Shown here: positions 191 to 31,581 of the stretch, in pieces
Numbering within the stretch: the stretch's first letter is position 1
Layout of the letters: every line of letters begins with the position of its first letter
IMG/VR virus record: IMGVR_UViG_3300010167_000030
Coordinates: 1 to 49,442 of that record
Strand: one strand, 5' to 3'
Source: a virus
DNA: 49,442 bases
Notes under the pieces: model-generated
What the model was told of the DNA's origin: nothing
The model's input: only the letters and a program-made list of their open reading frames with translations
Databases searched by the model: none
Position numbers and translations under genes: made by a program

Positions 191-196
191 TTTTTA

Positions 197-225
197 TTGA
201 CGAATTACAGCTAATTTGCTATAGT
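197..225 (+). promoter_or_regulatory. Canonical sigma-A-type promoter upstream of int
   Basis: TTGACG (197-202), 17-nt spacer ending in TGc (extended -10), then TATAGT (220-225). Confidence 0.6.
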
Positions 226-269
226 TAGCGTATGGAATGTTATATTTTTAATACGAATGGGGTAGTATA

Positions 270-1445
270 ATGACACAAAACACGACAAGGAAAAAGAGAA
301 ATTATGGGGAAGGTTCTATATATTTTGCCGAAGCTAATAATAAATGGGTAGCGAAATACAAGCCGGAAGGATGGTCGAAACCCAAAATATTTTACGCTAC
401 CACAGAAACAGAAGTAAGGAGGAAACTAAAACAATTTAAAAAAGAATCATCAAAGCAAACACTCATTGAGATTCAGAAAATGCCGGTAAAAGAATATATG
501 GATGATTGGCTTACTAAGGTAAAAACACTCGAATTAAAACCAAAAAGTTATGACCGTCTTGAGGATACCCTTAAAAACCAAATCTATCCGACATTGGGAG
601 ACATCCAGATTCATGCTTTAACCCCAGATGATATTCAGGGATTAATTAAGCATTTGCTGGATGAGGGATATTCGTATTCCACAATAAAAAAGACATATGA
701 GGCCTTCGATGGTTGCTTCAAATTGGGCGTCGAGAAAGGGGACTTGAGTGGTAACCCTGCTACTGGCGTTAAGTTACCGACAAAGATTAAAATCTCGAAG
801 AAAGCACGAAGTAAAAAGATTCGATTTTTTTCAGACGAGGAAGTTAAAGCCATTTATAATGAGTGCCTCATAGAATACAAGCATGGAAAGCGTGGATATC
901 GCCTTAGCCAGGCTTTAATAATACTATTGTATACGGGAATCCGGATAGGCGAATTACTTGGATTAAAGTGGGAACACGTCGATTTTGACAATAAAACCAT
1001 TGAGATCGTCGAAAGCGTAGTGCTAGTGCGTGCGAGAAAAGATGAAAAGACGAAGTATATTTTGCATGAGCAGGACGATACAAAAACCGAGGCAGGCGAC
1101 GGACGTGTCATACCGTTGAATAAAAAGGCCATGGCAGCGCTCCAGCAATTACATGATATTAACGGCAAATGGGATTATGTGGCGGCCAATACTAACGGGA
1201 CCGTAGTACGTCCAAGGAATTTTGATAGGATGATACGTAACATATTGAAAAAATGTGAAATAGAGCCATGTGGAGCTCATGTTTTCCGTCATACTTTTGC
1301 CAGTATGCTATTTAAGAAAGGCATCGATGTTAAATATGTCTCAGAACTACTGGGCCATGCTTCCATCGAGATTACATACGATACTTATATTCATCTTATC
1401 GAAGCGCAAAAGAAACAGATAATTGCGATACTGGATGAACTTTAA
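270..1445 (+). CDS. int: Tyrosine recombinase (phage integrase)
   Basis: 391 aa. Catalytic-domain signatures: TGIRIGELLGLKW (Arg), HVFRHTFAS (H-x-x-R), LLGHASIEITYDTYIH (His and nucleophile Tyr). Adjacent to the tRNA-derived att repeat. Confidence 0.92.
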   Translation: MTQNTTRKKRNYGEGSIYFAEANNKWVAKYKPEGWSKPKIFYATTETEVRRKLKQFKKESSKQTLIEIQKMPVKEYMDDWLTKVKTLELKPKSYDRLEDTLKNQIYPTLGDIQIHALTPDDIQGLIKHLLDEGYSYSTIKKTYEAFDGCFKLGVEKGDLSGNPATGVKLPTKIKISKKARSKKIRFFSDEEVKAIYNECLIEYKHGKRGYRLSQALIILLYTGIRIGELLGLKWEHVDFDNKTIEIVESVVLVRARKDEKTKYILHEQDDTKTEAGDGRVIPLNKKAMAALQQLHDINGKWDYVAANTNGTVVRPRNFDRMIRNILKKCEIEPCGAHVFRHTFASMLFKKGIDVKYVSELLGHASIEITYDTYIHLIEAQKKQIIAILDEL

Positions 1446-1565
1446 TTTTACATTCTATTTTGTTTTTCCATTTTACTTTTTCTAACCTAGATTAGGCAGG
1501 AAAGGTTTTCTGCAATTTTTATATTTTAGGTACGCAGGTGACAATAATATGTGTTATTGTGTTAG

Positions 1566-1595
1566 TGCGTGAAAATTACATATTCTTTAATGAAG
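1566..1595 (+). promoter_or_regulatory. Phage promoter-like motif copy P0a (CGTG variant)
   Basis: CGTG-AAAATT-ACA-TATTC-TTTAAT-GAAG, in the same register as the other copies. Confidence 0.5.
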
Positions 1596-1625
1596 AAGAT
1601 ACGATTTCGGTCTTCTTTTTATTTT

Positions 1626-1655
1626 TTCGCGAAATAAACAGCTTCTTTAATGGAA
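1626..1655 (+). promoter_or_regulatory. Phage promoter-like motif copy P0b
   Basis: CGCG(1628)-AAATAA-ACA-GCTTC-TTTAAT-GGAA. Confidence 0.5.
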
Positions 1656-1687
1656 ACATAAAATTTTTCTTGAAAGGAGAGAATGAA

Positions 1688-2050
1688 ATGAATGAAGAGG
1701 GTACTAGAAACTTATTGAAGGAGGAAATAGAGACGAAATTTCTTAGGTTGCTCCATCTTGAATCTGGATCAAAAGAGGAAAAAGGGGCGATAGACGATTT
1801 AATAGTTTTATACAGGCTAAAAATCGACGAAGATAAAGTTAAGCTAGAGGATCAATTTAAGAAAGATCAATTATCGGAACAAAAAAAGGATCGATATTTT
1901 AGAACTGCGATAGAGGCGGTTGGAATTGTCTCATCATTGATATTTTATGCTGTCTGGATGACAAGGGGATTTAGATTTGAGGAAACTGGATCTTATACCT
2001 CAGCAACGTTTAAAGGATTTTGGAGTCATTTTAGACCAACAAGAAGGTAA
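1688..2050 (+). CDS. Hypothetical protein, coiled-coil with C-terminal TM helix
   Basis: ATG at 1688 lies 6 nt after AAAGGAGAG. The ORF-track start (1538) would run through two promoter-motif copies. Hydrophobic segment AIEAVGIVSSLIFYAVWM. Confidence 0.6.
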   Translation: MNEEGTRNLLKEEIETKFLRLLHLESGSKEEKGAIDDLIVLYRLKIDEDKVKLEDQFKKDQLSEQKKDRYFRTAIEAVGIVSSLIFYAVWMTRGFRFEETGSYTSATFKGFWSHFRPTRR

Positions 2051-2065
2051 TATGGTTTACGGATG

Positions 2066-2096
2066 AAGAGTCTTAACAAAGGCTCTTTATTTTTTA
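2066..2096 (+). terminator. Rho-independent terminator
   Basis: Stem AAGAGTC/GGCTCTT (7 bp, one U-G), 8-nt loop, then a T-rich tail. Confidence 0.55.
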
Positions 2097-2108
2097 TTTG
2101 GAGTTTTT

Positions 2109-2468
2109 ATGCGCTACCACTATGAAAAACCAACAATCTATTTATCGATGTACGGACAATTTTATATTTGCGATCATCCGGCCTATGACTGCTGTACTCT
2201 GTTTCAAATAAATAGTAAAGGTTTAGCGGTGATACAGCAACGTTTTAATCCAGATAATAAAAGCACTTGGTGGAGCGAAATAGATTCCTGGATCATTGAT
2301 GATTTATATTTGCATCCAAGATTCAAGAAGTATTTCGATGAGCGTGCGGATACTTGCTTAAATGGTTTATATCCTACTGTTACAGTTAGACAAATTATGT
2401 GGGCTTTAAAGATGAAACCCATTCGCAGGGAACGATGGGAAACAGCCTTTGACAGAAGGGATATTTAA
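2109..2468 (+). CDS. Hypothetical protein
   Basis: 119-aa ORF with a GGAG upstream. No motif recognised. Confidence 0.6.
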   Translation: MRYHYEKPTIYLSMYGQFYICDHPAYDCCTLFQINSKGLAVIQQRFNPDNKSTWWSEIDSWIIDDLYLHPRFKKYFDERADTCLNGLYPTVTVRQIMWALKMKPIRRERWETAFDRRDI

Positions 2469-2480
2469 AAGGAGGTCGAA

Positions 2481-3125
2481 ATGACAAATAAGAAATTTTA
2501 TATTTTTAGTGGCGTTTCCGGTTTTGTGATCGGAATCGTTTTTACTATTATGACGTTTTCTATTTTTGACGTTAAAACCTCAAATGTTTTGCCGGAACTA
2601 AACCAAGACCAAACAATTGAGATATTTTCTAAAATTGGTTATGCCCACGATTTAGTCAATTTAGATGACCCATACGATTATTTCCCTGATATTCCATTAT
2701 GTTCAGAATTGCAGATATTTATTGGAGAAATGGCCGAACGATACGAAATAGACAAGTTTCTTATATTGGCGATCGCGCATGTGGAGACAGGAGGGACATA
2801 CAATACCGAATTGGTCGGCGGACCTAGCGATAAAGGAGTTTATTTTTACGGACTGATGCAAATTGATCCGGGTTGGTTGTCTTGGGGGAAGGAGCGAAAC
2901 GACGGACGAAAATTATATTTAATGGATCCATATGACAATATTCAATTAGGCACCATGATACTGAAATACTATCAGGACATGGCCCATGTTGGAACGGACT
3001 TGCATAAACTTGCGATGTGTTACAACGGAAATGAGGGATACGCTAGAGAGTTATGGGATAAAGGGATATTTGAAACGAAATACAGTCGCGCTGTTGTGGA
3101 TATTTATAATAAATTAAAGAATTAA
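2481..3125 (+). CDS. Membrane-anchored lytic transglycosylase (SLT-like)
   Basis: N-terminal TM helix (FYIFSGVSGFVIGIVFTIMTF). LAIAHVETGG...YGLMQI resembles the SLT catalytic-Glu and GLMQ motifs. Confidence 0.6.
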   Translation: MTNKKFYIFSGVSGFVIGIVFTIMTFSIFDVKTSNVLPELNQDQTIEIFSKIGYAHDLVNLDDPYDYFPDIPLCSELQIFIGEMAERYEIDKFLILAIAHVETGGTYNTELVGGPSDKGVYFYGLMQIDPGWLSWGKERNDGRKLYLMDPYDNIQLGTMILKYYQDMAHVGTDLHKLAMCYNGNEGYARELWDKGIFETKYSRAVVDIYNKLKN

Positions 3126-3149
3126 ATGTGAAAGGGAGAAAATGTTACC

Positions 3150-3569
3150 ATGGGAACAACAACACGCCCTGAATTATCCGGGAAGAATCAATACTGGATC
3201 GAGAAACACAGATATTATGAATTGAAACATTTTTGTCTCCAATACCCAATATGGGAGAAAGCTTATGAGGGTTTAGATGGCTTGAATAAGACTAAGGAGG
3301 GCCTGGATATTCTCAGCAAAACAAACAACATAACAGACTTAACATTTAAATGTGTTGAGGCTAAATTATTTTATTCTGAGAAAATGGACATGGTTAAGCA
3401 GGCGGCCATTGATACCAATCACATTCTATCAAGTTATATTTTAAAAGCGGTAACAGAAGGTCTTTCTTATGACCATCTGAAAAATAGAATGGGGGTCCCA
3501 TGTTGTAAGGGTATGTATTACGAATTATATAGACAATTTTTTTGGAACCTTAATAAACTACGACAATGA
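3150..3569 (+). CDS. Putative small transcription factor (RinA / sigma region-4-like)
   Basis: 139 aa. Layout is reminiscent of phage late activators: N-terminal YELKHFCLQYPIWEKAY and a C-terminal HTH-like GLSYDHLKNRMGVPCCKGMYYELYRQFF. Assignment from memory only. Confidence 0.4.
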   Translation: MGTTTRPELSGKNQYWIEKHRYYELKHFCLQYPIWEKAYEGLDGLNKTKEGLDILSKTNNITDLTFKCVEAKLFYSEKMDMVKQAAIDTNHILSSYILKAVTEGLSYDHLKNRMGVPCCKGMYYELYRQFFWNLNKLRQ

Positions 3570-3573
3570 TATT

Positions 3574-3603
3574 TGCGCGAAATTTACACGTTCTATAACG
3601 AAG
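3574..3603 (+). promoter_or_regulatory. Phage promoter-like motif copy P1
   Basis: CGCG(3576)-AAATTT-ACA-CGTTC-TATAAC-GAAG. Ends at the first base of the tRNA-like gene. Confidence 0.55.
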
Positions 3604-3674
3604 AGATAGTTAGCTCAACGGGAGAGCAACCGACTTGTAAAGGGTTGATACGGGTTCGATTCCTGTACTATTTC
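3604..3674 (+). tRNA. tRNA-like gene, Thr(UGU)-type anticodon loop, defective anticodon stem
   Basis: Acceptor AGATAGT/ACTATTT. D-arm GCTC-AACGGGA-GAGC. Anticodon loop CTTGTAA. T-arm ACGGG-TTCGATT-CCTGT. The anticodon stem ACCGA/AGGGT has only 3 pairs (G-G and A-A next to the loop). No encoded CCA. Confidence 0.6.
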
Positions 3675-3700
3675 TTTTATATTTTGAAAGGAGAGAGAAA

Positions 3701-4147
3701 ATGAAGAAGGATTTTCGCATTACGAAACACAACCCGAATACAATAAAAAACTTAATTGAAACCAGAGATCCAAAGGGGTTATTTTATTGCATCGAAACAA
3801 GAGAATGGGAGGGTAATAATGTTGGTTGGGAGGAAAAGGTATATGTTGCCGTCGATAACAGTACCGGAGATGCGTGGGTAGATGAATTTCCAGATTTGCG
3901 AAGTTGTAGACGATGGCTTTTAAGAAATGAAAAACAACCAAAACGACCTAAAAAACCAAAACCCAAGCCAAAGGCATTATATTTATGTGATCGTAAAGCT
4001 TGTTCAAAACCTTCAAGTCATTGCGGAGTTTATTGTTTTCATACATCAGATTTGAAACACGCAATCTCATTTGAAAAGGATGGCGCTTGGTATTTTGAAA
4101 GGAGAGAAAATCATGAAAACGATTCCATTTACAAGGGGGAATTATGA
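3701..4147 (+). CDS. Hypothetical protein (paralog set D, copy 1)
   Basis: Strong RBS. IETRDPKGLFYCIE...VAVDNSTGDAWVDEFPDLRSCRRWLL matches the next ORF. Lys/Pro-rich linker and Cys/His-rich C-terminus. Confidence 0.75.
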   Translation: MKKDFRITKHNPNTIKNLIETRDPKGLFYCIETREWEGNNVGWEEKVYVAVDNSTGDAWVDEFPDLRSCRRWLLRNEKQPKRPKKPKPKPKALYLCDRKACSKPSSHCGVYCFHTSDLKHAISFEKDGAWYFERRENHENDSIYKGEL

Positions 4148-4395
4148 GAGAAAAAGAGATTATTAAGCTAAGATTGGACGAAGCAAAAGACGTAATTGAA
4201 ACCAAAATTCCAAATGGTCTGTTTTATTGCATTGAGAAATTGGAGGATAAAAATATATATATTGCTATTGATAATAATAATGGCCATTTATGGATAGAGG
4301 AATTTCCAGATTTACGACGTTGCAAGCATTGGCTTATGAACGAAATAGGAAGCAGGTATTTTATTTATAGGTTAAAAGAAGATAGATGGAAATAG
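4144..4395 (+). CDS. Hypothetical protein (paralog set D, copy 2)
   Basis: ATGA overlap with the upstream gene. IETKIPNGLFYCIE...IAIDNNNGHLWIEEFPDLRRCKHWLM. Confidence 0.75.
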   Translation: MREKEIIKLRLDEAKDVIETKIPNGLFYCIEKLEDKNIYIAIDNNNGHLWIEEFPDLRRCKHWLMNEIGSRYFIYRLKEDRWK

Positions 4396-4646
4396 GAGGA
4401 AGTGATAATTTAAGAAAGGTGAGGATTAAGATGGAAGACGAAATTAAAATCAACGAAAAGACAATTAATATTTACGAGGCATACATTAAGGTTAATAGAT
4501 TATGTGATATTGTCGAAAAAGAATATTGCATGTCAAATGAAACGTGTCCGGCAATTAATGGAATCCGGATATGGATGAATGATATTCTCGCGTTCTTCGA
4601 AGCAAAGCCGAAAGAAACCGAAGAAATGAACTGGAAAGAGAGGTAA
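4386..4646 (+). CDS. Hypothetical protein
   Basis: ORF. The internal ATG at 4431 has the better RBS (AAGGTGAGG), so the true start may be 4431. Confidence 0.55.
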   Translation: MEIGGSDNLRKVRIKMEDEIKINEKTINIYEAYIKVNRLCDIVEKEYCMSNETCPAINGIRIWMNDILAFFEAKPKETEEMNWKER

Positions 4647-4650
4647 GAAA

Positions 4651-5367
4651 ATGTCGCTACGAAGATTAGTTATTAAAAATAGTCCATTTATATTTACCAG
4701 TTTGGCAACCATCGGAGTAGTCGTAACGGCGATATTTGCATCAAAAGATACGATTAAAAATTTCGAAGAAAATGAGAATCGCCGATTTCAAACATTAAAA
4801 TGTTATATTCCAACAATCACCATTGGCCTTATAACAATTTCTTGTATTATTAGCGCCCACGCGCTCAATAAAAAACAGCAAACTGCTCTTATTAGTGCTT
4901 ATATATTTTTAAATAAGGCGTACCAAGAGTATAAAAAGAAATCAAATGAGATATTTGGAGAAAACGCTAGCGACCAAATTCGAAATGAAGTAGTAAAAGA
5001 AAGGTATTTAAAATTAGATGAAAAAGAGGGAAATAATATTTGTAAGACGAACGAGAAAGAACTATTTTATGAAGAATATTACGGGAAATTTTTTGAACGT
5101 ACAAAAGAGGAGGTATTAAACGCCGAATGGCATTGTAATCGAGATTTTATATTAAAAGGATACGCTTCTTTAAACGATTTCTATGAGTATCTCGATCTTG
5201 AACCAACGGAGTTTGGCAACGTGGTAGGTTGGGGCATAGATGTCGGTCATGAGATTTATGGATATTCTTGGATAGACTTTAATCATGAATTAGTTACAAC
5301 TGCCGATAACGAATTAGAATACAATTTTATAACAATGACGTATCCGCCAACTACGAATTATATTTAG
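4651..5367 (+). CDS. Two-TM membrane protein (paralog set A, copy 1)
   Basis: Shares NSPFIF plus TM1 plus K-D/A-T, TM2, N..AL.SAY...EY and C-terminal LNDFYEYLDLEPTEFGNVVGWG with 6104-6931 and 9208-10161. Confidence 0.8.
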   Translation: MSLRRLVIKNSPFIFTSLATIGVVVTAIFASKDTIKNFEENENRRFQTLKCYIPTITIGLITISCIISAHALNKKQQTALISAYIFLNKAYQEYKKKSNEIFGENASDQIRNEVVKERYLKLDEKEGNNICKTNEKELFYEEYYGKFFERTKEEVLNAEWHCNRDFILKGYASLNDFYEYLDLEPTEFGNVVGWGIDVGHEIYGYSWIDFNHELVTTADNELEYNFITMTYPPTTNYI

Positions 5368-5370
5368 TCT

Positions 5371-5400
5371 TGCGCGAATTAAACACGTTCTGTAATGAAA
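5371..5400 (+). promoter_or_regulatory. Phage promoter-like motif copy P2
   Basis: CGCG(5373)-AATTAA-ACA-CGTTC-TGTAAT-GAAA. Confidence 0.55.
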
Positions 5401-5414
5401 GGATGTGATATTTT

Positions 5415-5675
5415 ATGACAAAAGATGCGCAGAAAAAAAAGATTAAAGAAATTTTAGATGAATTAACTGAAATTGAATTAGAGATTCATCGATCAGCGGC
5501 GCAACTCGGTCAATGTATTGTTAATATTAATGAATGCTTAAAAATTGATGATATTGATGCCGCATTACTATATTATCGAGTAAATTGCAAGCTTCGATTG
5601 AATTACAAATTCGTTAAAGAAAATCTTGAAGAAAAAGAATCGAAAATCTGGGAAAAAATTTATGAAGTATACTAA
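5415..5675 (+). CDS. Hypothetical 86-aa helical protein (paralog set B, copy 1)
   Basis: Aligns by eye with 6947-7198 (ILDELTEIELEIHR..LGQCIVNINECLKIDDIDAALLYY versus ILKKVANILINLHK..MDACIVAINNSIVINNVDTITKFY). Confidence 0.75.
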   Translation: MTKDAQKKKIKEILDELTEIELEIHRSAAQLGQCIVNINECLKIDDIDAALLYYRVNCKLRLNYKFVKENLEEKESKIWEKIYEVY

Positions 5676-5686
5676 ATTCAATCAAT

Positions 5687-5716
5687 AAAGAGTTTGATAA
5701 AAACTCTTTATTTTTT
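5687..5716 (+). terminator. Rho-independent terminator
   Basis: AAAGAGTTT-GATAA-AAACTCTTT (9-bp perfect stem) followed by ATTTTTT. Confidence 0.8.
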
Positions 5717-5718
5717 CT

Positions 5719-5748
5719 TACGCGAAAAAAACATACTCTATAATGAAC
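5719..5748 (+). promoter_or_regulatory. Phage promoter-like motif copy P3
   Basis: CGCG(5721)-AAAAAA-ACA-TACTC-TATAAT-GAAC. Directly precedes the 108-nt structured RNA. Confidence 0.6.
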
Positions 5749-5856
5749 AACAGTAGAAGCTTAATGCTTAGGAAGAATTCACCGATGAATAGAGAATTAC
5801 TCTATCGACCATTCGGTGATGGGGTTCGAGTCCCCACGTTAGATGCTTATACTGTT
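5749..5856 (+). ncRNA. Structured tRNA-like RNA (canonical T-arm, non-cloverleaf body)
   Basis: Perfect T-arm TGGGG-TTCGAGT-CCCCA (5820-5836). A 10-bp terminal stem pairs CAGTAGAAGC (5751-5760) with GCTTATACTG (5845-5854). A 41-nt extended arm (5779-5819) has TCACCGA/TCGGTGA and TAGAG-AATTA-CTCTA. Bracketed by promoter copy P3 and a T-run. I could not fold it as a standard tRNA. Confidence 0.5.
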
Positions 5857-5861
5857 TATTT

Positions 5862-5891
5862 TTCGCGCTATTTACAATGTCTGTAATGAAG
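5862..5891 (+). promoter_or_regulatory. Phage promoter-like motif copy P4
   Basis: CGCG(5864)-CTATTT-ACA-ATGTC-TGTAAT-GAAG. Confidence 0.55.
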
Positions 5892-5904
5892 GGAGTGATA
5901 TTTT

Positions 5905-6045
5905 ATGAATAATGAGAAAGCGATTGTATTTATTGGGTTAGCTGTTAGTTTTATATCAACATTAATAATTGGTTGGACTAACGGTCGATTAACGAAAATG
6001 GCAGTCACAAAATTAGTAGAAGAAGCACTTGCAAAAAGAAATTAA
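5905..6045 (+). CDS. Small (46-aa) single-TM peptide
   Basis: Not in the ORF track (<60 aa). MNNEKAIVFIGLAVSFISTLIIGWTNGRL.... Has the shared GGGAGTGATATTTTATG leader and is followed by a terminator. Confidence 0.5.
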   Translation: MNNEKAIVFIGLAVSFISTLIIGWTNGRLTKMAVTKLVEEALAKRN

Positions 6046-6056
6046 AAACGGAGAAG

Positions 6057-6078
6057 GACTCTTAATAAGAGTCTTTTT
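6057..6078 (+). terminator. Rho-independent terminator
   Basis: GACTCTT-AAT-AAGAGTC followed by TTTTT. Confidence 0.7.
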
Positions 6079-6103
6079 CTTTATATTTTTGAAAGGAGAA
6101 ACA

Positions 6104-6931
6104 ATGAATACGTTAATTCTGGATAGATTTATGAGAAATATTCAGAGAGTCACCAATAAATACAGTCCTGAAATCCTATCTGGAATCGGGATCGCAGGTA
6201 TGATAACGACAACTATTTTAGCCGTTAAGGCAACTCCTAAAGCTCTAAGATTATTAGAAGAGGCTGAAAAAAGATATTTAGATTCTTCGACGTCCAAAGC
6301 ATCTAAAGGCGAATTGGTAGATAGCAAAGGAAAGGAGATCCCGATATTTAAGCCGTTAGAAAAGGTTAAAATAGTTTATACATGTTATATTCCATCCGTC
6401 GTTATTGGTTTTCTGTCTATATTTTGCCTTGTTGGTGCGAGTTCCGTAAACCTACGGAGAAACGCAGCGTTAGCAACCGCATATACGCTCTCTGAATCGG
6501 CTCTACGAGAGTATCAGGAGAAAGTTATTGAGACGATTGGCAGCAAAAAGGAGCAGGCAATCAAAGATGATATTGCTAAAGATAGAATCGATAAAAATCC
6601 CGTAACAAGCAGGGAAATAATCATTACAGAGAAAGGGAATACATTATGCTATGACGTCATTTCCGGAAGATATTTCAAATCTGATATGGATAAAATCAAA
6701 AAAGCTGAAAATCAACTTAATCTACAGTTGCGATACGATATGTTTATATCCTTGAACGAGTTTTATGACGAAATAGGTTTACATCCAACAAGCCTAGGTG
6801 ATCAACTTGGATGGACAATTGATGATGGATATATTGAATTGAAATTCAGTTCAGCGTTGACGGATAGCGGAAGTCCGTGCCTGGTTATTGACTATAGAGT
6901 TGCTCCGAGGTACGACTATAAAAACGGATAA
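6104..6931 (+). CDS. Two-TM membrane protein (paralog set A, copy 2)
   Basis: ATG at 6104 follows GAAAGGAGAAACA. The ORF-track start 6029 would read through the terminator at 6057-6078. KYSPEILSGIGIAGMITTTILAVKAT...LNEFYDEIGLHPTSLGDQLGWT. Confidence 0.8.
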   Translation: MNTLILDRFMRNIQRVTNKYSPEILSGIGIAGMITTTILAVKATPKALRLLEEAEKRYLDSSTSKASKGELVDSKGKEIPIFKPLEKVKIVYTCYIPSVVIGFLSIFCLVGASSVNLRRNAALATAYTLSESALREYQEKVIETIGSKKEQAIKDDIAKDRIDKNPVTSREIIITEKGNTLCYDVISGRYFKSDMDKIKKAENQLNLQLRYDMFISLNEFYDEIGLHPTSLGDQLGWTIDDGYIELKFSSALTDSGSPCLVIDYRVAPRYDYKNG

Positions 6932-6946
6932 GGAGGTGTGATATTT

Positions 6947-7198
6947 ATGATGGAAAATTCTCAAAAAATTGAAGAAATCTTAAAAAAAGTAGCTAATATC
7001 CTTATAAACTTGCATAAACTTTACAATCAAATGGATGCCTGTATTGTGGCCATTAATAATTCTATAGTAATAAATAATGTTGATACCATAACAAAGTTTT
7101 ATGAATCGACTACTCCATATAATCGAAATTGGAAGAAATTAGTGGTAGAAATCAACGACCAACTCGAAGAACTTTATGGGGCGATCAAAAGTATATAA
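6947..7198 (+). CDS. Hypothetical helical protein (paralog set B, copy 2)
   Basis: ATG lies 10 nt after AAGGAGG. Paralog of 5415-5675. Confidence 0.75.
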   Translation: MMENSQKIEEILKKVANILINLHKLYNQMDACIVAINNSIVINNVDTITKFYESTTPYNRNWKKLVVEINDQLEELYGAIKSI

Positions 7199-7247
7199 AA
7201 AATGTGATGTTTAAAGAAAAAGCAAAACGGATAAGGAGGTGATATTT

Positions 7248-7745
7248 ATGACGGAAAAGAAGAAATGTATAGGGTGCCAGACTGAACTTAAATTAGGGAA
7301 ATTCGCCTATAACCAAGAACTTTGTTGGGATTGCTTCAATAAAGAGATCCAGATTATTCTTAAACGAATTGATTGTTATCCATCATGGTTTTGGGGAAAG
7401 CGGGAACTACACAAAAGTATTATCAAGCATATGCAAGCATGTATGGTTATGATATTTAGAGGGGATGGTCAAAAAGTTACATATCATAAAGAAGTCAAAT
7501 TTAATACTAAAAAAGAAGCCGAAGCAGTTTTATCCGATATGAAAGAAATAATAGAGAGTTATGGGTTTATTGCTTTAGGCGGGTTATATTATTTAATCGC
7601 ACTTCCTTCAACCGAAGAAGATAATAAATATGGTTGGATTAATCTTAGTGAGGCTAAAATTAATCGAATAAAAGATGGGTATTTGCTTACTTTACCACGA
7701 CCAATTCTATTAGGTCAAGAAACGCAATTGAAAGGGGAAAAATAA
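7248..7745 (+). CDS. Hypothetical protein with N-terminal CxxC..CxxC and conserved C-terminal domain (paralog set C, copy 1)
   Basis: C-terminus EAEAVLSDMKEIIESYGFIALGGLYYLIALPSTEEDNKYGWINLSEAKINRIKDGYLLTLPRP aligns with the C-terminus of 8477-9184. Confidence 0.75.
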   Translation: MTEKKKCIGCQTELKLGKFAYNQELCWDCFNKEIQIILKRIDCYPSWFWGKRELHKSIIKHMQACMVMIFRGDGQKVTYHKEVKFNTKKEAEAVLSDMKEIIESYGFIALGGLYYLIALPSTEEDNKYGWINLSEAKINRIKDGYLLTLPRPILLGQETQLKGEK

Positions 7746-7746
7746 A

Positions 7747-8061
7747 ATGAAATTTGATATTTCATATGAAGATTTCTGGGGTTATTATAAAAGCGCATTA
7801 TTAGAAGATATTGAAAAAGCAAATCTTATCATAGATAAACTAAGTGACGAGGAGGATAAAGATATTCTTAAAACTTTGCTAAATTCCTTGAGCAAGGAAA
7901 TTATTACTACGGTCGAGGGAATACTTGATTTTGCAAAGGAAGATAGCCTTCCAAAGCCAAAAAGCGAATACGGGAAGAGGATGAGAGCCAATCTCGCAAT
8001 AACCGAATACAAGCAGAAGATGATGCCTGATTTAGCAGAAGGTGATAAAAACTTTGATTAG
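7747..8061 (+). CDS. Hypothetical acidic protein
   Basis: 104-aa ORF starting 1 nt after the upstream stop. Confidence 0.65.
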   Translation: MKFDISYEDFWGYYKSALLEDIEKANLIIDKLSDEEDKDILKTLLNSLSKEIITTVEGILDFAKEDSLPKPKSEYGKRMRANLAITEYKQKMMPDLAEGDKNFD

Positions 8062-8065
8062 TAAA

Positions 8066-8095
8066 CGCGCGCGAAAAACATACCCTTTAATGAAG
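8066..8095 (+). promoter_or_regulatory. Phage promoter-like motif copy P5
   Basis: CGCG(8068)-CGAAAA-ACA-TACCC-TTTAAT-GAAG. Confidence 0.55.
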
Positions 8096-8137
8096 AAAAC
8101 CAAATAAAATTTCTATTATTGAAAGGAGAAAAATAAA

Positions 8138-8389
8138 ATGGAAAATGTCATAGCAAACGAAGATGTCATGGAGACTGTCGAGGGAATGGTTGTAAAAACT
8201 GGTTCTGGAGATTATGTTCGGATTATTGCGATTGGTGCGATAGTGATTATTGCTTGTGGGGCTACCTACAAGTATGTCGTCAAACCCATCATAGCAAAAA
8301 TCAAACTAAAAAAGAACGGTAAAAAGCCAAACCTGCGGGTTGTTGACGGAGGCGATTATGATGAGGAATCCAACGAAGATCAAGAATAG
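8138..8389 (+). CDS. Small single-TM protein
   Basis: Strong RBS. TM helix VRIIAIGAIVIIACGATY. Basic then acidic tail. Confidence 0.7.
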   Translation: MENVIANEDVMETVEGMVVKTGSGDYVRIIAIGAIVIIACGATYKYVVKPIIAKIKLKKNGKKPNLRVVDGGDYDEESNEDQE

Positions 8390-8412
8390 GGAAGGTTTAA
8401 AAGAAAGTGAAG

Positions 8413-8476: not shown

Positions 8477-9184
8477 ATGGACGAATACAGATCAAACTCG
8501 CACGAATCAAAAGAAGAAAAAATATATTTCGATCCAATAGAAAACAAAATTAAAAAGATGGTTATGGATAAGGAAAAGTCTAAAATGGAAAAACAATACA
8601 AATCAAACTCGCACGAATCAAAAGAAAGAACCGACGAATCCATTCCAAATAAAAAAATCGAAAAAGTAGTTAAAGGAGAAGTTAGATCCAGAAAGAAAAA
8701 CGAACTTCAAAAGTTTACAGATGTCTTTATATCCGAGGATGTGGGTAATCTTAAAGATTATATTTTTATTGAGGTACTTGTCCCGGCAATTAAAAAAGGA
8801 ATCTATGATGTTGTTACAAATGGCATTGATATGATTCTTTATCGTGGAACCGGAAAAAGAAAAAATTTCTCGCCTTCGAAGATATCCTATAAAGATTATA
8901 GTGATGACCGTAGCAGGAGAAATAATTATTCGGGGCCGAGCGTGACTAATTATGAAAATATTATCATAGAGAGTCGAGGAGAAGCGGAAGACGTTTTATA
9001 TCGAATGGATGAATTAATAGATGAATTCGGTTTGGTTAGCGTGGCTGATTTATACGATTTAGTCGGTATTTCGGGAAATTATACAGATAATAGATACGGT
9101 TGGACTGATATTCTGAGTGCCAAAGCAGTTCCTGTAAGAGACGGATATATTCTTAAATTGCCAAGGGCGCTAGCATTCAAATAA
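8477..9184 (+). CDS. Hypothetical protein (paralog set C, copy 2) with internal 31-nt direct repeat
   Basis: C-terminus EAEDVLYRMDELIDEFGLVSVADLYDLVGISGNYTDNRYGWTDILSAKAVPVRDGYILKLPRA. The N-terminus contains Y(R/K)SNSHESKE twice (DNA 8485-8515 and 8596-8626). Confidence 0.8.
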   Translation: MDEYRSNSHESKEEKIYFDPIENKIKKMVMDKEKSKMEKQYKSNSHESKERTDESIPNKKIEKVVKGEVRSRKKNELQKFTDVFISEDVGNLKDYIFIEVLVPAIKKGIYDVVTNGIDMILYRGTGKRKNFSPSKISYKDYSDDRSRRNNYSGPSVTNYENIIIESRGEAEDVLYRMDELIDEFGLVSVADLYDLVGISGNYTDNRYGWTDILSAKAVPVRDGYILKLPRALAFK

Positions 9185-9207: not shown

Positions 9208-10161
9208 ATGGATAAATTAAACATTATAAACGGCATGAACAAAACTTTTGCGAGAGTAAATTTTCAGGTAATGAAACATAGTCCTGAAATTTTTCTTATT
9301 GCCGGATTATGTGGAGTGGTCGCCAGTACGGTCATGGCGTGCAAGGCAACTACAAAAATTAATACCATTCTTAGCAACCATAAAAAAGATATTGAGACAA
9401 TTCACACTTATGCTGAAGACGAATCTTATAAAGAAGAATATTCAGAGGAAGACAGCAAAAAGGATTTACTAATTGTCTACACGCAAACCGCTTTTAAATT
9501 CTTAAAACTCTACGGTCCGGCAGTCGCCGTTGGAATTTTGTCAATCGGATGTATATTAGCATCCAATAATATTATGCGTGCCAGAAACATAGCTCTTGCA
9601 AGCGCATATGCCACGATAGATAAAGGTTTCAAGGAATATCGGAATCGAGTTATTGAGCGTTTTGGGAAGGACGTCGATCACGAACTAAAATACAACATAA
9701 AAGCAAAGAAATTCGAAGAAACTATCGTCGATGAAAAAGGAAAAGAAAAGAAAGTCGAGAAAGCCGTTGATATTGCAAATCTTGATTATTGTAGCGAGTA
9801 CGCCCGTTTCTTTGATGCAGCATCGAGACATTGGGAGGATAATTCCGAGTACAATTTAATGTACGCTCGCCTTCAGCAGCAATATGCAAATAATTTACTT
9901 CGGTCTAGGGGATATTTATTTTTGAATGAGGTATATAACATGTTTGATATTCCGATTTCGAAGGCCGGGCAAATTGTCGGGTGGACCTATGATTTAAAAA
10001 ACCCTAAAGGCGATAATTATGTTGACTTCGGAATTTATAAAGCAAGTATTGAAAAATTGGATAATACTGATTTTGTCAACGGTTACGAACCGGCAGTATT
10101 ACTGGACTTTAATGTCGATGGTGATATTTGGAGCACAATAGAGCATTCATTAAAAAAGTAA
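9208..10161 (+). CDS. Two-TM membrane protein (paralog set A, copy 3)
   Basis: KHSPEIFLIAGLCGVVASTVMACKAT...NIALASAY...EYRNRVIERFG...LNEVYNMFDIPISKAGQIVGWTY. Confidence 0.8.
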   Translation: MDKLNIINGMNKTFARVNFQVMKHSPEIFLIAGLCGVVASTVMACKATTKINTILSNHKKDIETIHTYAEDESYKEEYSEEDSKKDLLIVYTQTAFKFLKLYGPAVAVGILSIGCILASNNIMRARNIALASAYATIDKGFKEYRNRVIERFGKDVDHELKYNIKAKKFEETIVDEKGKEKKVEKAVDIANLDYCSEYARFFDAASRHWEDNSEYNLMYARLQQQYANNLLRSRGYLFLNEVYNMFDIPISKAGQIVGWTYDLKNPKGDNYVDFGIYKASIEKLDNTDFVNGYEPAVLLDFNVDGDIWSTIEHSLKK

Positions 10162-22212: not shown

Positions 22213-22249
22213 ATATTTTTAACAGATGAATATTAGTGTTTTTATAAGG

Positions 22250-22274
22250 CCTATATCGCTTGATATGGGTTTTT
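22250..22274 (+). terminator. Rho-independent terminator
   Basis: CCTATATC-GCTT-GATATGGG (one U-G pair) followed by TTTTT. Confidence 0.65.
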
Positions 22275-22292
22275 ATATTTGGTAAAATTTGT

Positions 22293-22322
22293 CACGCGAA
22301 AAAAACATTCACTTTAATGAAG
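22293..22322 (+). promoter_or_regulatory. Phage promoter-like motif copy P6 (upstream of the nuclease and RNAP-candidate genes)
   Basis: CGCG(22295)-AAAAAA-ACA-TTCAC-TTTAAT-GAAG. A degenerate second copy follows at about 22327-22356. Confidence 0.55.
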
Positions 22323-23202: not shown

Positions 23203-25848
23203 ATGAACACAATCGCAAGAGAAATCCTGACGCATTATGGAATGCCTAGACGTTCTGGACGATATCCTTATGGTTCTGGGGATAATCCCTATCAACGAAG
23301 TGGCGATTTTTTAAGCCGAATAGAAGAGTTAAAAAAAGAGGGGAAAACCGATAAAGATATTTATGAATTAATGGGGCTTAAATCATCTGAATATAGAATT
23401 CAAAAAGCATTGGCGAACGACGAAAGAAGGTCACTTCTGGTTTCTCAAGCAAAAGCATTAAAAGATAAAGGATATAGTTTAAAAGAAATTACAAGAAGAA
23501 TGGGATATTCGAGCGATTCATCAGTAAGATCCCTTCTTGATGAAAGAGCAGAAGGTAGAATGAATCAAGCAAGGAACACTGCCGACATTCTTAAAAAAGA
23601 GATTGATAAAAAAGGAATGATCGATGTTGGCATAGGCGTAGAAAAAGAACTTAACATTTCTTCGGAAATGAAAAAACAAGCATTATATTTACTTGAGATG
23701 GAAGGGTATCCTGTTTACGGCGGACGTCGTTCGCAAATCACTAACCCAGGAAAGAAAACTACTTTACTAATTGCATGTCCTCCCGGTACTGAGCATAAGG
23801 AAATTTTTAATGCTGAAAACGTTCATTCCCTTAAGGATTATATTTCTTATGATGGCGGCTATACATATAAAAAACCGTTCGTCTACCCAAAGAGTATGGA
23901 TTCGAATCGTATTAAAATTAATTATGCGGAAGAAGGAGGGGATAAGGAAGATGGGCTTATTTATATTCGTAGAAACGTAGAAGATTTAAGTTTAGGGAAA
24001 GCTCACTATGCGCAAGTAAGAATTCTTGTAGATAATGATAAGTATTTAAAAGGGATGGCCGTTTATTCGGATAATATGCCAGATGGCATTGATGTTATAT
24101 TTAATACTAATAAAAAAATAGGAACGGATAAATCAAAAGTTTTTAAATCGATTAGTAATGATCCAAATAATCCATTCGGATCTCTTATAAAAGAAAAAGG
24201 AGGTCAAAGTTATTATCTGGATAAAAATGGAGTGGACCAGTTATCGTTAATAAATAAAAGAGCCGAAGAAGGAGACTGGAAAGATTGGTCTAATAAATTA
24301 GCTTCTCAATTTTTATCAAAACAAAATAAAGCTTTAATAGATAAACAATTGAATTTGACAATCGCCGATAAAATGGAAGAATTTGATGAGATTCGTTCGT
24401 ATACAAACCCAACAATTAAGAAAATACTGTTAAACTCTTTTGCTGACGATTGCGATGCTGCCGCGGTTCATTTAAAAGCTACCGCGTTGCCGAGACAGCA
24501 ATATCATGTCATTTTGCCAATTACCACAATGAAAGATAACGAAGTATATGCTCCGAATTATGAAAATGGAGAAAAATTAGCACTCGTAAGATTTCCACAC
24601 GGAGGAACTTTTGAAATACCAATTCTTACCGTTAATAACAAACAGCAGGATGCCAAAAAAATACTTGAAAATAGCATAGATGCTATAGGCATTAATAGTC
24701 AAGTAGCTTCGAGGCTATCGGGGGCTGACTTTGACGGCGATGCAGTAATGACTATACCGATTACTAATAAAATAAAAATCAGTCACGAGCCTCCATTGAA
24801 AGAACTTGAAGGATTTGACGTTAAATTAGAGTATCCATATCGAGAAGGCATGAAAAAAATGACGAACACCCAAAACGAAATGGGCAAAATCACGAATCTA
24901 ATTACTGATATGACCTTAAAAGGAGCAACTAAAGAAGAATTAGCAAAAGCCGTTAAACATAGTATGGTTGTAATAGATGCTGAGAATCATAATCTTAACT
25001 ATAAACAGAGTGAAATCGACAATAATATTTCTGCTTTAAAAACGCGTTATCAAGAAGGCGGAGCTTCAACGTTACTGTCAAGGGCTAAATCACGAACGAC
25101 AATAATTAAGAGACGAGGAAGCCCTAAAATCAATCCGCAAACTGGAGAATTAGAATGGAAAGAGACGGAAAATCCGACATATGTAGACGAAAAAGGAAAA
25201 ATTAAAACAAAAACTCAAAGAAGTACAAAAATGGCCGAAACAAAAGATGCTAGAACATTGTCTTCGGGGACTCCACAAGAAGAAGCATACGCCATATATG
25301 CTAATAAAATGAAAGCCATGGCCAACGAAGCCCGTAAAGAAATGATTACTACTAAAAAGATACAATACTCCCCCTCTGCGAAAGCCGTATACCAGCAAGA
25401 AGTTAATTCGTTATTAGCTCAACTTAATATAGCATTAAAGAATGCCCCTCGTGAACGACAAGCTCAAGGCCTTGCCGGCGTTGCCGTGGCCGATAGGATT
25501 AAAGGAATTAAAGACATTAAAAAGAAAGAACTTAAGAAACTTAATCAACAAGCCATTACCGCTACTAGAATAACAGTTGGCGCCCAAAGACATCCCATTA
25601 AAATTTCAGATCGAGAATGGGAAGCGATTCAAGCTGGAGCAATTAGTGAGAATATGCTTATTAAAATTATTAAAAATGCTAATATTGATGAACTTAAAGT
25701 TCGAGCTACTCCACGAGCTACAACAAACTTGAGCGCTGCTAAAATTAATAAAATTTCTTCTATGAATTCTTCTGGTTACACAATTAAAGAAATCGCAAAA
25801 GCTATTAATGTATCAACTTCGACCGTATCCAAGTATTTAAAAAATTGA
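23203..25848 (+). CDS. Candidate single-subunit double-psi-beta-barrel RNA polymerase (YonO-like)
   Basis: LVRFPHGGTFEIPILTV...IGINSQVASRLSGADFDGDAVMTIP. The GADFDGD sits at DNA 24721-24741 and matches the NADFDGD metal loop of beta-prime and the DxDGD of YonO/RdRP-type enzymes. HTH-like segments near both termini. Confidence 0.6.
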   Translation: MNTIAREILTHYGMPRRSGRYPYGSGDNPYQRSGDFLSRIEELKKEGKTDKDIYELMGLKSSEYRIQKALANDERRSLLVSQAKALKDKGYSLKEITRRMGYSSDSSVRSLLDERAEGRMNQARNTADILKKEIDKKGMIDVGIGVEKELNISSEMKKQALYLLEMEGYPVYGGRRSQITNPGKKTTLLIACPPGTEHKEIFNAENVHSLKDYISYDGGYTYKKPFVYPKSMDSNRIKINYAEEGGDKEDGLIYIRRNVEDLSLGKAHYAQVRILVDNDKYLKGMAVYSDNMPDGIDVIFNTNKKIGTDKSKVFKSISNDPNNPFGSLIKEKGGQSYYLDKNGVDQLSLINKRAEEGDWKDWSNKLASQFLSKQNKALIDKQLNLTIADKMEEFDEIRSYTNPTIKKILLNSFADDCDAAAVHLKATALPRQQYHVILPITTMKDNEVYAPNYENGEKLALVRFPHGGTFEIPILTVNNKQQDAKKILENSIDAIGINSQVASRLSGADFDGDAVMTIPITNKIKISHEPPLKELEGFDVKLEYPYREGMKKMTNTQNEMGKITNLITDMTLKGATKEELAKAVKHSMVVIDAENHNLNYKQSEIDNNISALKTRYQEGGASTLLSRAKSRTTIIKRRGSPKINPQTGELEWKETENPTYVDEKGKIKTKTQRSTKMAETKDARTLSSGTPQEEAYAIYANKMKAMANEARKEMITTKKIQYSPSAKAVYQQEVNSLLAQLNIALKNAPRERQAQGLAGVAVADRIKGIKDIKKKELKKLNQQAITATRITVGAQRHPIKISDREWEAIQAGAISENMLIKIIKNANIDELKVRATPRATTNLSAAKINKISSMNSSGYTIKEIAKAINVSTSTVSKYLKN

Positions 25849-31551: not shown

Positions 31552-31581
31552 TACGCGTTAATAACACCTCCTTTTATGAAA
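31552..31581 (+). promoter_or_regulatory. Phage promoter-like motif copy P7 (inside the late region)
   Basis: CGCG(31554)-TTAATA-ACA-CCTCC-TTTTAT-GAAA, in exact register with P0-P6. Confidence 0.45.

Follow-up and report, generated by a model that had tools for sequence, protein, structure and literature searches.

A repeated promoter-like motif and its probable reader, a two-barrel RNA polymerase, in phages of Firmicutes and Actinobacteria

A 27-base motif of fixed geometry recurs nine times in the viral DNA analyzed here (IMG/VR record IMGVR_UViG_3300010167_000030, positions 1 to 49,442, hereafter the window), and in related phages of two host phyla it accompanies a gene encoding a two-barrel RNA polymerase. 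The nine copies probably represent phage-specific promoters, read by the phage polymerase encoded at 23203-25848 and not by the host sigma-A holoenzyme. What the analysis shows is the motif, its geometry, its rules of strand and position, its co-occurrence with the polymerase in different phyla and the polymerase fold; promoter function, the start site and the identity of the reader we infer from these patterns in the window and in its relatives. The relevant features of the window are as follows.

1568..1594, +, motif copy 1 (CGTG variant), hairpin plus T-run directly 3'
1628..1654, +, motif copy 2, 36 nt 5' of the ATG of gene 1688-2050 and 3' of a hairpin and T-run (1592-1628)
2061..2092, +, terminator-like hairpin, closing the unit that copy 2 would drive
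3576..3602, +, motif copy 3, with a tRNA-Thr start at motif position 28-29
3603..3675, +, tRNA-Thr(UGU), downstream of copy 3
5373..5399, +, motif copy 4, Shine-Dalgarno from motif position 27, ATG 18 nt past G25 (gene 5415-5675)
5684..5720, +, 12-bp hairpin with T-run, 5' of copy 5
5721..5747, +, motif copy 5, after the hairpin and T-run, followed by a 119-nt structured tRNA-like RNA
5745..5863, +, structured RNA that fills the gap from copy 5 to copy 6, T-arm tRNA-like, closing stem from 4 nt after G25
5864..5890, +, motif copy 6, Shine-Dalgarno GGGAG at motif positions 28-32, ATG 17 nt past G25
6050..6080, +, terminator-like hairpin, closing the unit that copy 6 would drive
8068..8094, +, motif copy 7, 5' of gene 8138-8389 and the long gene run after it
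22246..22273, +, terminator-like hairpin with T-run, 5' of copy 8
22260..22288, +, sigma-A-like promoter TTGATA-17-TGgTAAAAT, directly 5' of copy 8
22295..22321, +, motif copy 8, heading the small ORF-exonuclease-RNA polymerase operon, a placement kept in 63/63 relatives
22383-22670, +, small ORF, proposed to be co-transcribed with the polymerase from copy 8
22642-23199, +, exonuclease, likewise proposed to be co-transcribed from copy 8
23203..25848, +, 881-aa RNA polymerase, single-chain and two-barrel, HTH segments at both termini, proposed motif reader
31554..31580, +, motif copy 9, 5' of gene 31617-31868 and of portal and head genes

The motif in the window

An exact scan of the window with the pattern CGYG-N6-ACA-N5-T-N-TWAY-GRA (Y, C/T; W, A/T; R, A/G) returned nine matches, all on the + strand, against 0.01 expected by chance, and none of 100 shuffles contained nine. 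The repeated motif described in an earlier note on this DNA is thus real and was recovered at each position claimed, with ACA exactly 10 nt and the hexamer exactly 18 nt after the first C, GAA or GGA following the hexamer, and every copy lying between genes or after a stop codon. Two details had to be corrected. Copy 1 carries CGTG in place of the reported (C)GCG, and a "looser copy" proposed at 3087 is without ACA and GAA and was missed even at two mismatches, so it does not belong to the motif; allowing two mismatches added one site only, which is the chance level. The position weight matrix that had been suggested as a check was built from the nine copies and run on both strands of the window. 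The copies received 32-38 bits, which are self-scores of the training sites, and the next-best position 12.9 bits, a gap that is very large nonetheless; on the - strand no position exceeded 8 bits.

The conserved region is longer than originally described, extending from T-1/T0 to A28 and including C18, T19 and T21. Upstream of the motif only a T-rich tract and no -35 signal was found, in line with the reported lack of conservation at that position. The sigma-A-like promoters of the window (TTGnnn-17-TGnTAnAAT) are quite unlike the motif; the one at 197-225 was returned by a consensus scan, and those at 21368-21396 (+) and 28327-28299 (-) were read by eye and were not listed by that scan. The proposal that the motif is a promoter class peculiar to the phage, and different from the sigma-A promoters of its genome, is supported.

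The polymerase and its co-occurrence with the motif

The 881-aa protein, previously put forward as a candidate phage RNA polymerase, is indeed such an enzyme and belongs to the two-barrel polymerases that resemble YonO and QDE-1. Its match to PHROG 4291, 'RNA-dependent RNA polymerase', scores 1191 bits, and RLSGADFDGD and R463-x-P465 are invariant, in agreement with the invariant two-barrel polymerase residues listed in PMC2919709, where the phage 1706 protein was already placed among the YonO-like families (one of five). A Foldseek search with a model of the polymerase core (pLDDT 73.9; the full-length AlphaFold model was poor, pLDDT 56.6) retrieved QDE-1 (2.7e-8), RDR2 (1e-4), the P74 gp62 non-virion polymerase (8e-4) and AR9 beta' (0.018), with modest TM-scores of 0.33-0.38. 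When a profile of the catalytic segment was compared with the PDB, the best matches were phage polymerases, AR9 beta' at the top and the P23-45 tape-measure-fused polymerase also listed, all of them weak (E 0.15-1.4) and amid other chance-level matches.

The motif and the polymerase co-occur in thousands of phages whose hosts are Firmicutes and Actinobacteria. The geometry is unchanged in polymerase-encoding relatives infecting Faecalibacterium (phage FP_oengus, at least 12 copies), Lactococcus (phage 1706, about 10 copies of a co-diverged variant, CACA..TTTTACA..CTATAGTAGAA), Streptomyces (RosaAsantewaa, 6), Gordonia (Secretariat, 9) and Arthrobacter (Arcadia, 8). The pattern is close to diagnostic for the family: among 120 IMG/VR loci picked by the exact pattern, 97 carried family marker genes and 19 more held 2-11 sites, and none of these loci, with 653 sites altogether, had sites on both strands. 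In 80 viral contigs selected by polymerase homology alone, all 179 sites shared the strand of the polymerase gene, giving 0 of 832 on the opposite strand when both sets were pooled. A site was present 5' of the exonuclease-polymerase operon in all 63 loci with enough upstream DNA, at 0.3-1.4 kb from the polymerase gene (mostly about 0.9-1.1 kb), and the hexamer of these operon copies is almost uniformly TTTTAT. The 139-aa protein (3150-3569), also considered earlier as a specificity factor, is not supported in that role, since several phages that carry the motif, namely Lactococcus phage 1706 and those of Streptomyces, Gordonia and Arthrobacter, gave no match to a profile of 24 homologs.

Start site and proposed mechanism

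Across the family, a Shine-Dalgarno sequence and a start codon lie 10-50 nt past G25 at 77% of sites, compared with about 14% of random positions, and a hairpin with a T-run is found upstream of 40% of sites, compared with 5%. Shine-Dalgarno cores often begin at motif positions 26-28, and in 147 of the 187 sites with a close start codon the core begins at position 30 or earlier. Fourteen distinct tRNA genes start at positions 25-32, seven of them at 28 and four at 29; in the window, the 5' end of tRNA-Thr (3603) would require a start at position 28 or earlier. Given tRNA starts 3-4 nt past G25 and Shine-Dalgarno cores at 26-28, transcription would begin at about G25, 1 nt past the hexamer. A start right after TAAT points to a T7/SP6-like layout and not to a sigma-70 -10 element, and it disagrees with the earlier reading of the hexamer as a -10 with starts 5-9 nt downstream.

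With G25 as +1, the putative promoter would consist of CGCG at -24 to -21, an A/T-rich spacer, ACA at -14 to -12, C-T-n-T-A/T-A-T at -7 to -1 and G-A-A at +1 to +3. Some 10 bp separate one conserved block from the next, so that all three lie on one helix face. The upstream blocks would be bound as duplex DNA, possibly via the HTH segments at both polymerase ends, the TAAT stretch would then melt, and the purine run GAA would begin the RNA; a family-conserved cofactor may act alongside the polymerase. Such promoters would drive short units, many bounded by hairpin and T-run terminators, comprising small genes, a tRNA and a tRNA-like RNA, and the one at copy 9 would lie 5' of the portal and head genes. 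As a motif promoter heads the exonuclease-polymerase operon, it would give positive feedback.

The source of the first polymerase counts against this phage-polymerase reading, because in relatives the only recognizable promoter of the polymerase gene is usually the motif itself, usually with a terminator just upstream. In the window, the promoter at 22260-22288 is a candidate host-polymerase entry point for the first synthesis, and a nearby sigma-A-like promoter of this kind occurs in only 17% of relatives. Also against it, the motif clusters on the apparent early region, so that lytic members would need the polymerase at the moment of infection. In the phage 1706 record, 'structural protein' is annotated on several other gene products and not on the polymerase.

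Known systems and alternative readings

The proposed promoters resemble those of T7, T3 and SP6 in being contiguous (about 23-27 bp), present in many copies on a single strand and conserved through +1 to +3, with an AT-rich TATA/TAAT stretch directly before a purine start, and in serving short units closed by hairpin-U terminators. The SP6 promoter sequence is CTATAGAAGAG, and the stretch compared with it is CTATAATGAAGAG in the window and CTATAGTAGAAAG in phage 1706. However, the T7/T3/SP6 polymerases are single-subunit and Pol-I-like, unrelated to the two-barrel fold found here, and the promoter here is longer and divided into three blocks spaced by one helical turn; the sequence likeness is probably convergent. 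The early promoters of the N4 virion polymerase and of crAss-like gp66 are comparable in that clustered early genes would be transcribed by a phage enzyme with no need for host sigma. The N4 and crAss-like enzymes are packaged in the virion and injected, and N4 promoters take the form of hairpins, whereas the motif here forms no hairpin and nothing points to packaging of the polymerase.

YonO of Bacillus prophage SPbeta is likewise phage-encoded, single-chain and of the two-barrel superfamily. The polymerase described here belongs to a separate family, no sequence-level match having been obtained in a comparison that did not include YonO itself. YonO drives one late operon, its promoter sequence being then still undetermined (PMC5467207), while here many promoters would serve mostly small genes of the early region, and HTH segments are fused to the polymerase. 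Single-subunit two-barrel polymerases are also found in Thermus phages P23-45/P74-26 (gp64/gp62, non-virion; gp96, virion), whose promoters are repeated motifs upstream of starts, assigned with the help of a motif-polymerase co-occurrence argument (bioRxiv 10.1101/2022.12.01.518664). Those motifs, AT-rich and GC-rich, differ from the present one and have TSS and ChIP support; moreover, the virion-delivered polymerase makes the second one there, a relay that is not evident here.

It is unlikely that the motifs are host sigma-A promoters with the hexamer at positions 19-24 as the -10, either -10-only or helped by an activator on the CGCG and ACA blocks, a role that could fall to the 139-aa protein or to the HTH domains of the 881-aa protein, working as a transcription factor. 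This reading was already published for cluster DJ phage Vardy in a genome announcement that took the hexamer for a sigma-70 -10 element (PMC9671010), and it would settle how the polymerase operon is first expressed. As in -10-only or extended -10 promoters, the hexamer is TATAAT-like (exactly TATAAT in the phages of Gordonia and Arthrobacter), the upstream DNA is A/T-rich and the sites are intergenic, and many units are flanked by hairpin and T-run terminators, a classic bacterial-polymerase signal. However, TAnnnT at positions 19-24 is present in one of nine window copies and 57% of family sites, and position 20, the A-11 equivalent, is A in two of nine and 60%, while T21 (98%) and G25 (92%) are strongly conserved, the reverse of a sigma-70 profile. 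TG and a -35 are likewise missing, and the hexamer would occupy -6 to -1 and not -12 to -7; a sigma-type start at about position 31 would leave the tRNA 5' ends and Shine-Dalgarno cores upstream of it. The CGCG and ACA blocks, foreign to sigma-70 promoters, are kept across phages of both phyla, and neither the actinophages nor 1706 have the 139-aa protein.

An operator or regulatory box, at which a conserved DNA-binding protein of the phage would tune promoters elsewhere, would fit the helical-turn spacing of the blocks, which suits protein binding on one DNA face, and the window, which encodes an integrase, is temperate. We nevertheless consider this reading very unlikely, although the earlier note had offered an operator as its alternative: the motif is without dyad symmetry and equally present in lytic phages (1706, cluster DJ), no other conserved promoter-like signal lies between it and the genes starting 10-50 nt downstream, and the abutting tRNA genes leave no space for another promoter. 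Finally, the repeats could be recombination 'boundary sequences' for gene shuffling, a role proposed for the 32-bp repeat found in Arthrobacter phages of cluster AU, in which gene rearrangements are reported to be confined to a repeat-flanked cassette (bioRxiv 10.1101/2020.01.10.891226). The motif-rich region is indeed the most variable part of these phage genomes. Recombination, however, needs no strict co-orientation with genes, no fixed distance to a start codon and no block-wise conservation over phyla, which makes this explanation extremely improbable; gene shuffling is more plausibly a side effect of having repeated promoters.

A repeated promoter-like motif in the window

The window is a complete contig organised like a temperate siphovirus, nearly all of its genes being on the + strand. 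The gene order starts with the integrase and a small-gene region (SLT transglycosylase, three DUF6353 paralogs, a tRNA-Thr and a tRNA-like RNA), continues with a primase/family-B polymerase fusion, an annealing protein, a helicase, a Tad3-like gene, an exonuclease and the 881-aa protein (23203-25848, +), and ends with an HNH nuclease, terminase, portal, and head and tail genes. Megablast of positions 1-8400 against phage records returned no match.

Our exact scan with CGYG-N6-ACA-N5-T-N-TWAY-GRA revealed nine matches in the 49,442 bases, against an average of 0.01 in dinucleotide-preserving shuffles of the window. This bears out the earlier note, a description made from the sequence alone, which had counted at least nine copies, all on the + strand. 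Positions within the 27-base motif are counted from the first C of CGCG; the hexamer occupies 19-24 and is followed by G25.

Motif copies (exact scan) and a sigma-A-like promoter (consensus scan) in the window
1568, + strand, motif copy
1628, + strand, motif copy
3576, + strand, motif copy
5373, + strand, motif copy
5721, + strand, motif copy
5864, + strand, motif copy
8068, + strand, motif copy
22260-22288, + strand, sigma-A-like promoter, unlike the motif
22295, + strand, motif copy heading the operon of a small ORF, the exonuclease and the 881-aa gene
31554, + strand, motif copy ahead of the portal block

Seven of the nine copies are located within the small-gene region. The offsets reported earlier, with ACA 10 nt and the hexamer 18 nt after the first C, are exact in all copies, and the CGCG start holds for all except the copy at 1568, which reads CGTG. 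The conserved block is longer than first described, also taking in C18, T19 and T21. A weight matrix built from the nine copies scored them at 32-38 bits and the next-best window position at 12.9 bits, with nothing above 8 bits on the - strand, and a scan allowing two mismatches added just one site, at chance level. Both scans reject the proposed 'looser copy' at 3087 as a member. Such a matrix scan of both strands and of relatives had been suggested previously; it recovered the copies in the window, found the - strand empty and was positive in the relatives. Several copies had also been said to follow a terminator, and a hairpin with a T-run is indeed present upstream of those at 1628, 5721 and 22295.

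The first copy is directly followed by an A/U-rich hairpin and T-run (-9.1 kcal/mol; window 1568-1628), and the second begins right behind that T-run; promoter and terminator together would yield an RNA of only about 30 nt. Two gene blocks, 2092-3569 (2109-2468, the SLT gene and the gene of a 139-aa protein) and 6080-8061 (from the second DUF6353 gene to 7747-8061), lie downstream of strong terminator-like hairpins and have neither a motif copy nor an obvious sigma-A promoter.

The motif and the polymerase across the phage family

With the window matrix, at least 12 copies (GACGCGAAAAAnnCAnnnnnCTTTATGGA) were found in Faecalibacterium phage FP_oengus (49% G+C), all on the gene strand and in the same genomic places as in the window. 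Streptomyces phage RosaAsantewaa carries six copies (TCGCAAGATnTACAnGGnnTnAAATGAGACCCC), Gordonia phage Secretariat nine and Arthrobacter phage Arcadia eight. In Lactococcus phage 1706, whose polymerase is the most diverged (40% identity), there are about ten copies of a variant that keeps this geometry (CACAnGTTTTACAnnnnCTATAGTAGAAAG). The motif was found in six sequenced phages, with hosts in Firmicutes and Actinobacteria. An exact scan of IMG/VR returned at least 120 loci; among the 120 motif-selected loci listed, 97 have family marker genes and 19 more have 2-11 sites, and at least 116 are family members. These family loci hold 653 sites, and in none of them are sites found on both strands. 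In the reverse test, 80 loci picked by polymerase homology alone contained 179 sites, every one of them on the strand of the polymerase gene. The motif lies 0.3-1.4 kb (mostly ~0.9-1.1 kb) upstream of the polymerase gene in 63 of the 63 loci with enough upstream DNA, where it heads the exonuclease-polymerase operon, as in the window. Motif and polymerase co-occur across the genomes compared, a set without polymerase-free genomes as a control. The motif belongs to the phage family and not to the host. Its family consensus is TT-CGCG-aAAAww-ACA-nnnn-C-T-a-T-a-A-T-G-A-A-A, and apart from an upstream T-rich tract no information was detected outside positions -1 to 28.

The repeat has been described twice before in actinophages, namely in Gordonia phage Vardy as a 50-bp motif 'containing a TATAAT -10 sigma-70 promoter' (PMC9671010) and in Arthrobacter cluster AU as a 32-bp recombination 'boundary sequence' (bioRxiv 10.1101/2020.01.10.891226). 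In the literature on the YonO promoter, phage 1706 and clusters AU/DJ/BI, with most subscription journals outside the search, we found no paper tying the repeat to a polymerase or noting its conservation across phyla. Other repeats were seen in large gaps upstream of the polymerase region: three direct repeats of ~35 nt (ctatcacgaaaaaacttcgggaaaacttcgggatt) in phage 1706 (L124, 3634-4083), and repeated aaatcTTGACGaatctga boxes, resembling host -35 elements, in Secretariat (L125, 34900-35210).

The 881-aa protein matches PHROG 4291 'RNA-dependent RNA polymerase' with 1191 bits and has 250 homologs in sequenced phages (46-49% identity), which infect Faecalibacterium, Lactococcus, Gordonia, Arthrobacter, Streptomyces and others. 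A homology search gave at least 8,000 polymerase clusters at 90% identity, and the family is common in gut and soil viromes. The DxDGD metal-binding triad of the beta'-like barrel is present as GADFDGD (D509, D511, D513), which is invariant in relatives from six host genera. RLSGADFDGD and R463-x-P465 are likewise invariant among relatives, R463/P465 being 46 residues ahead of D509; an R-x-P about 45 residues before the triad is a two-barrel invariant, seen in QDE-1 as R962/P964 (PMC2919709). In the first (beta-like) barrel, D250/D261, R273 and K283-G284 are invariant within YAQVRI...YLKGMA...P.G.D..FNTNK and may be the counterparts of the basic and acidic invariants D709, R738 and K743 of QDE-1. 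The phage 1706 protein had already been placed among five 'YonO-like' families (Ruprich-Robert and Thuriaux, PMC2919709).

Pfam returned only HTH domains for the polymerase, and phmmer and a full-length profile against the PDB returned only the HTH parts and no polymerase. A profile of the catalytic segment listed AR9 beta' first and also the P23-45 tape-measure-fused polymerase, both aligned on the DxDGD motif, as weak matches (E 0.15-1.4) amid others at chance level. Since AlphaFold gave no usable model of the whole protein and a second homolog search with a diverse profile gave almost the same clade again, the core alone (residues 230-700) was modelled (pLDDT 73.9) and used for the structure search. 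Foldseek matched it to QDE-1 (2.7e-8), plant RDR2 (1e-4) and the P74 gp62 non-virion polymerase (8e-4), each with probability 1.00, followed by AR9 beta' (E 0.018, probability 0.84) and the large subunits of cellular polymerases; TM-scores were modest (0.33-0.38). By these residues and this model, the 881-aa protein is a predicted two-barrel RNA polymerase of the YonO/QDE-1-like single-chain kind. HTH-like segments are located near its N terminus (~residues 40-140) and at its C terminus (843-880). Within residues 1-31 (window 23203-23300), HYG..R.SGRYP.GSG is invariant from Firmicutes to Actinobacteria phages and extends as ..DNPYQ in most; this peptide is modelled as disordered (pLDDT ~33) and could be a targeting or interaction signal.

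Start site and reading of the motif

As would be expected of a promoter for a phage polymerase, the motif is repeated and strand-specific, and it closely precedes genes in a genome with a polymerase of its own. Among 617 distinct sites, 77% have a Shine-Dalgarno sequence and start codon 10-50 nt past G25 (median 32), compared with ~14% of random positions, and a hairpin with a T-run lies within 70 nt upstream of 40% of sites versus 5% of random positions. Fourteen different family tRNA genes begin at motif positions 25-32 (seven at 28, four at 29), the tRNA-Thr of the window begins at 28-29, and the closing stem of the RNA at 5745-5863 begins 4 nt past G25. Where a start codon follows within 23 nt (187 sites), the Shine-Dalgarno core begins no later than position 30 in 147 cases and no later than 28 in 129. 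The tRNA 5' ends (28-29) and the Shine-Dalgarno cores (from 26) indirectly bound the start site at position 25-27 or earlier; position 25 itself is occupied by G (92% of sites) or A (8%). Since a start 6-8 nt past a '-10' at 19-24 would truncate the tRNAs and remove ribosome-binding sites, we infer that transcription starts at about G25. This prediction, 1 nt after the hexamer, departs from the 5-9 nt previously assumed. With G25 as +1, CGCG would occupy -24 to -21, ACA -14 to -12, CTnTAAT -7 to -1 and GAA +1 to +3. The layout of T7 and SP6 promoters is similar, and the sequence resemblance to them is probably convergent. We are highly confident that the motif is a family-specific promoter element.

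If the motif were instead a sigma-A promoter of the host, the hexamer at 19-24 would be its -10 element. TAnnnT is found there in 57% of family sites, but in only one of the nine window copies, and the equivalent of the near-invariant A-11 is weakly conserved (60%) beside near-invariant neighbours; the copies of the polymerase operon read TTTTAT. No -35 hexamer is present 16-18 bp upstream: across 607 sites this position carries no information beyond T-richness, in line with the lack of TTGACA conservation noted earlier. The consensus promoter scan of the window accepted no copy's hexamer as a -10 element, and the only promoter-like matches listed that overlap copies (1635-1664, 3583-3610) use the copy's ACA block as their -35. 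Indirect evidence also comes from the start site: with a sigma-type start 6-8 nt past the hexamer, transcription would begin within 12 of the 14 adjacent tRNA genes and after most of the close Shine-Dalgarno cores. CGCG and ACA are, moreover, conserved in phages of two bacterial phyla. On these sequence features, the sigma-A reading is unlikely. The sigma-A-like promoters of the same genome do differ from the motif, as had been claimed; 197-225 was returned by the consensus scan, while 21368-21396 and 28327-28299 (-) were read by eye and are unlisted by it. The other alternative raised, that the CGCG-A/T block is an operator, is opposed by the asymmetry of the motif, which lacks dyad symmetry, and by its presence beyond temperate phages. 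The cluster DJ phage Vardy was reported as lytic or virulent (PMC9671010), as was phage 1706, going by the title of a reference cited in PMC2919709, and the annotation of the phage 1706 stretches examined has no integrase.

Regarding the reader of this promoter, the earlier note had proposed a phage-specific class served either by the phage polymerase or by a modified host RNAP, with the 139-aa protein (3150-3569) as candidate factor. The class stands, with the polymerase as the most likely reader, whereas the 139-aa protein fails as a universal factor: a 24-member profile of it found no homolog in phage 1706 or three actinophages, even at E = 10. Its homologs are confined to a Firmicutes subset, and it has no Pfam or PDB relatives. 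Because the polymerase, an apparently DNA-directed protein, accompanies the motif everywhere and has HTH segments of its own, it seems likely that the phage's two-barrel polymerase reads the motif; the three blocks, one helical turn apart, might be contacted by the HTH segments. A fuller proposal, to which we give slightly less than even chances, is that the ~100-kDa polymerase alone reads the 27-bp three-block promoter through its N- and C-terminal HTH segments, works without a sigma-like factor and initiates at the G after TAAT, the pair being nearly unchanged across Firmicutes and Actinobacteria phages and controlling the polymerase's own gene, possibly as a host-independent bistable lytic switch.

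In most relatives, a terminator and then the motif precede the polymerase operon. A sigma-A-like promoter just upstream of that motif, such as 22260-22288 in the window, is present in 17% of relatives only and is rejected as a general bootstrapping solution; Secretariat has TTGACG boxes further upstream. The first polymerase molecules may arise by terminator read-through, by weak host recognition of the operon copy, or by delivery in the virion. The phage 1706 record labels several other products 'structural protein', but not the polymerase. An operon under its own polymerase's motif would feed back positively on itself, and temperate members could use this as a switch.

That phage polymerases can have promoters of their own is well established (T7, N4, P23-45). 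Among the YonO/QDE-1-like single-chain two-barrel polymerases, the YonO paper left the promoter and any cofactor need to be determined (PMC5467207). In P23-45, a combination of motifs, start-site mapping and ChIP defined the promoters that two two-barrel phage polymerases use (bioRxiv 10.1101/2022.12.01.518664). If the polymerase alone reads the promoter, the YonO/QDE-1-like branch would gain its first defined promoter and mode of recognition, and there would be a compact orthogonal transcription system for Gram-positive bacteria, in which the small polymerase-promoter pair may work across hosts. Culturable members of the family infect Lactococcus, Faecalibacterium, Gordonia, Arthrobacter and Streptomyces, and given a consensus and a predicted +1, promoter recognition can be tested directly in available phages. 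By the same consensus, transcription units could be annotated in thousands of genomes.

Other features of the genome

Directly upstream of the integrase, window positions 1-50 resemble a tRNA 3' half (a T-arm followed by ...GGTACCA) and are probably the attachment-site core. Gene 20516-21235 has a Pfam Tad3 (Type I Thoeris inhibitor) domain (E = 5.6e-28), and its product is likely an anti-defence protein. Between the fifth and sixth motif copies lies a 119-nt structured RNA (5745-5863; -34.4 kcal/mol) with a tRNA-like T-arm (GGGGTTCGAGTCCCC) and a 7-bp closing stem. ARAGORN with introns allowed gave only an implausible tRNA-Gly there, and Rfam found only tRNA in the window, with no RNA family at the motif or at 5745-5863.

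Around the terminase gene, ORFs 27448-27897, 28327-28863 and 30608-31543 share a 25-aa N-terminal DUF7211 motif; among them lies 27899-28267 (-), the sole minus-strand gene of the window, whose promoter is of the sigma-A-like extended -10 type and whose product matched no family. The DUF6353 paralogs (4651-5367, 6104-6931, 9208-10161) alternate with phrog_4079 paralogs (7248-7745, 8477-9184), and both families are kept throughout the phage group, actinophages included. Finally, a translation-initiation region, GGAG(G)TGATATTT(T)ATG, with extended complementarity to the 16S rRNA 3' end, recurs at ~5400, 5884, 6935 and 7235, and a similar over-represented word (AATGATATTT) occurs in 11-12 copies in FP_oengus, on one strand only.
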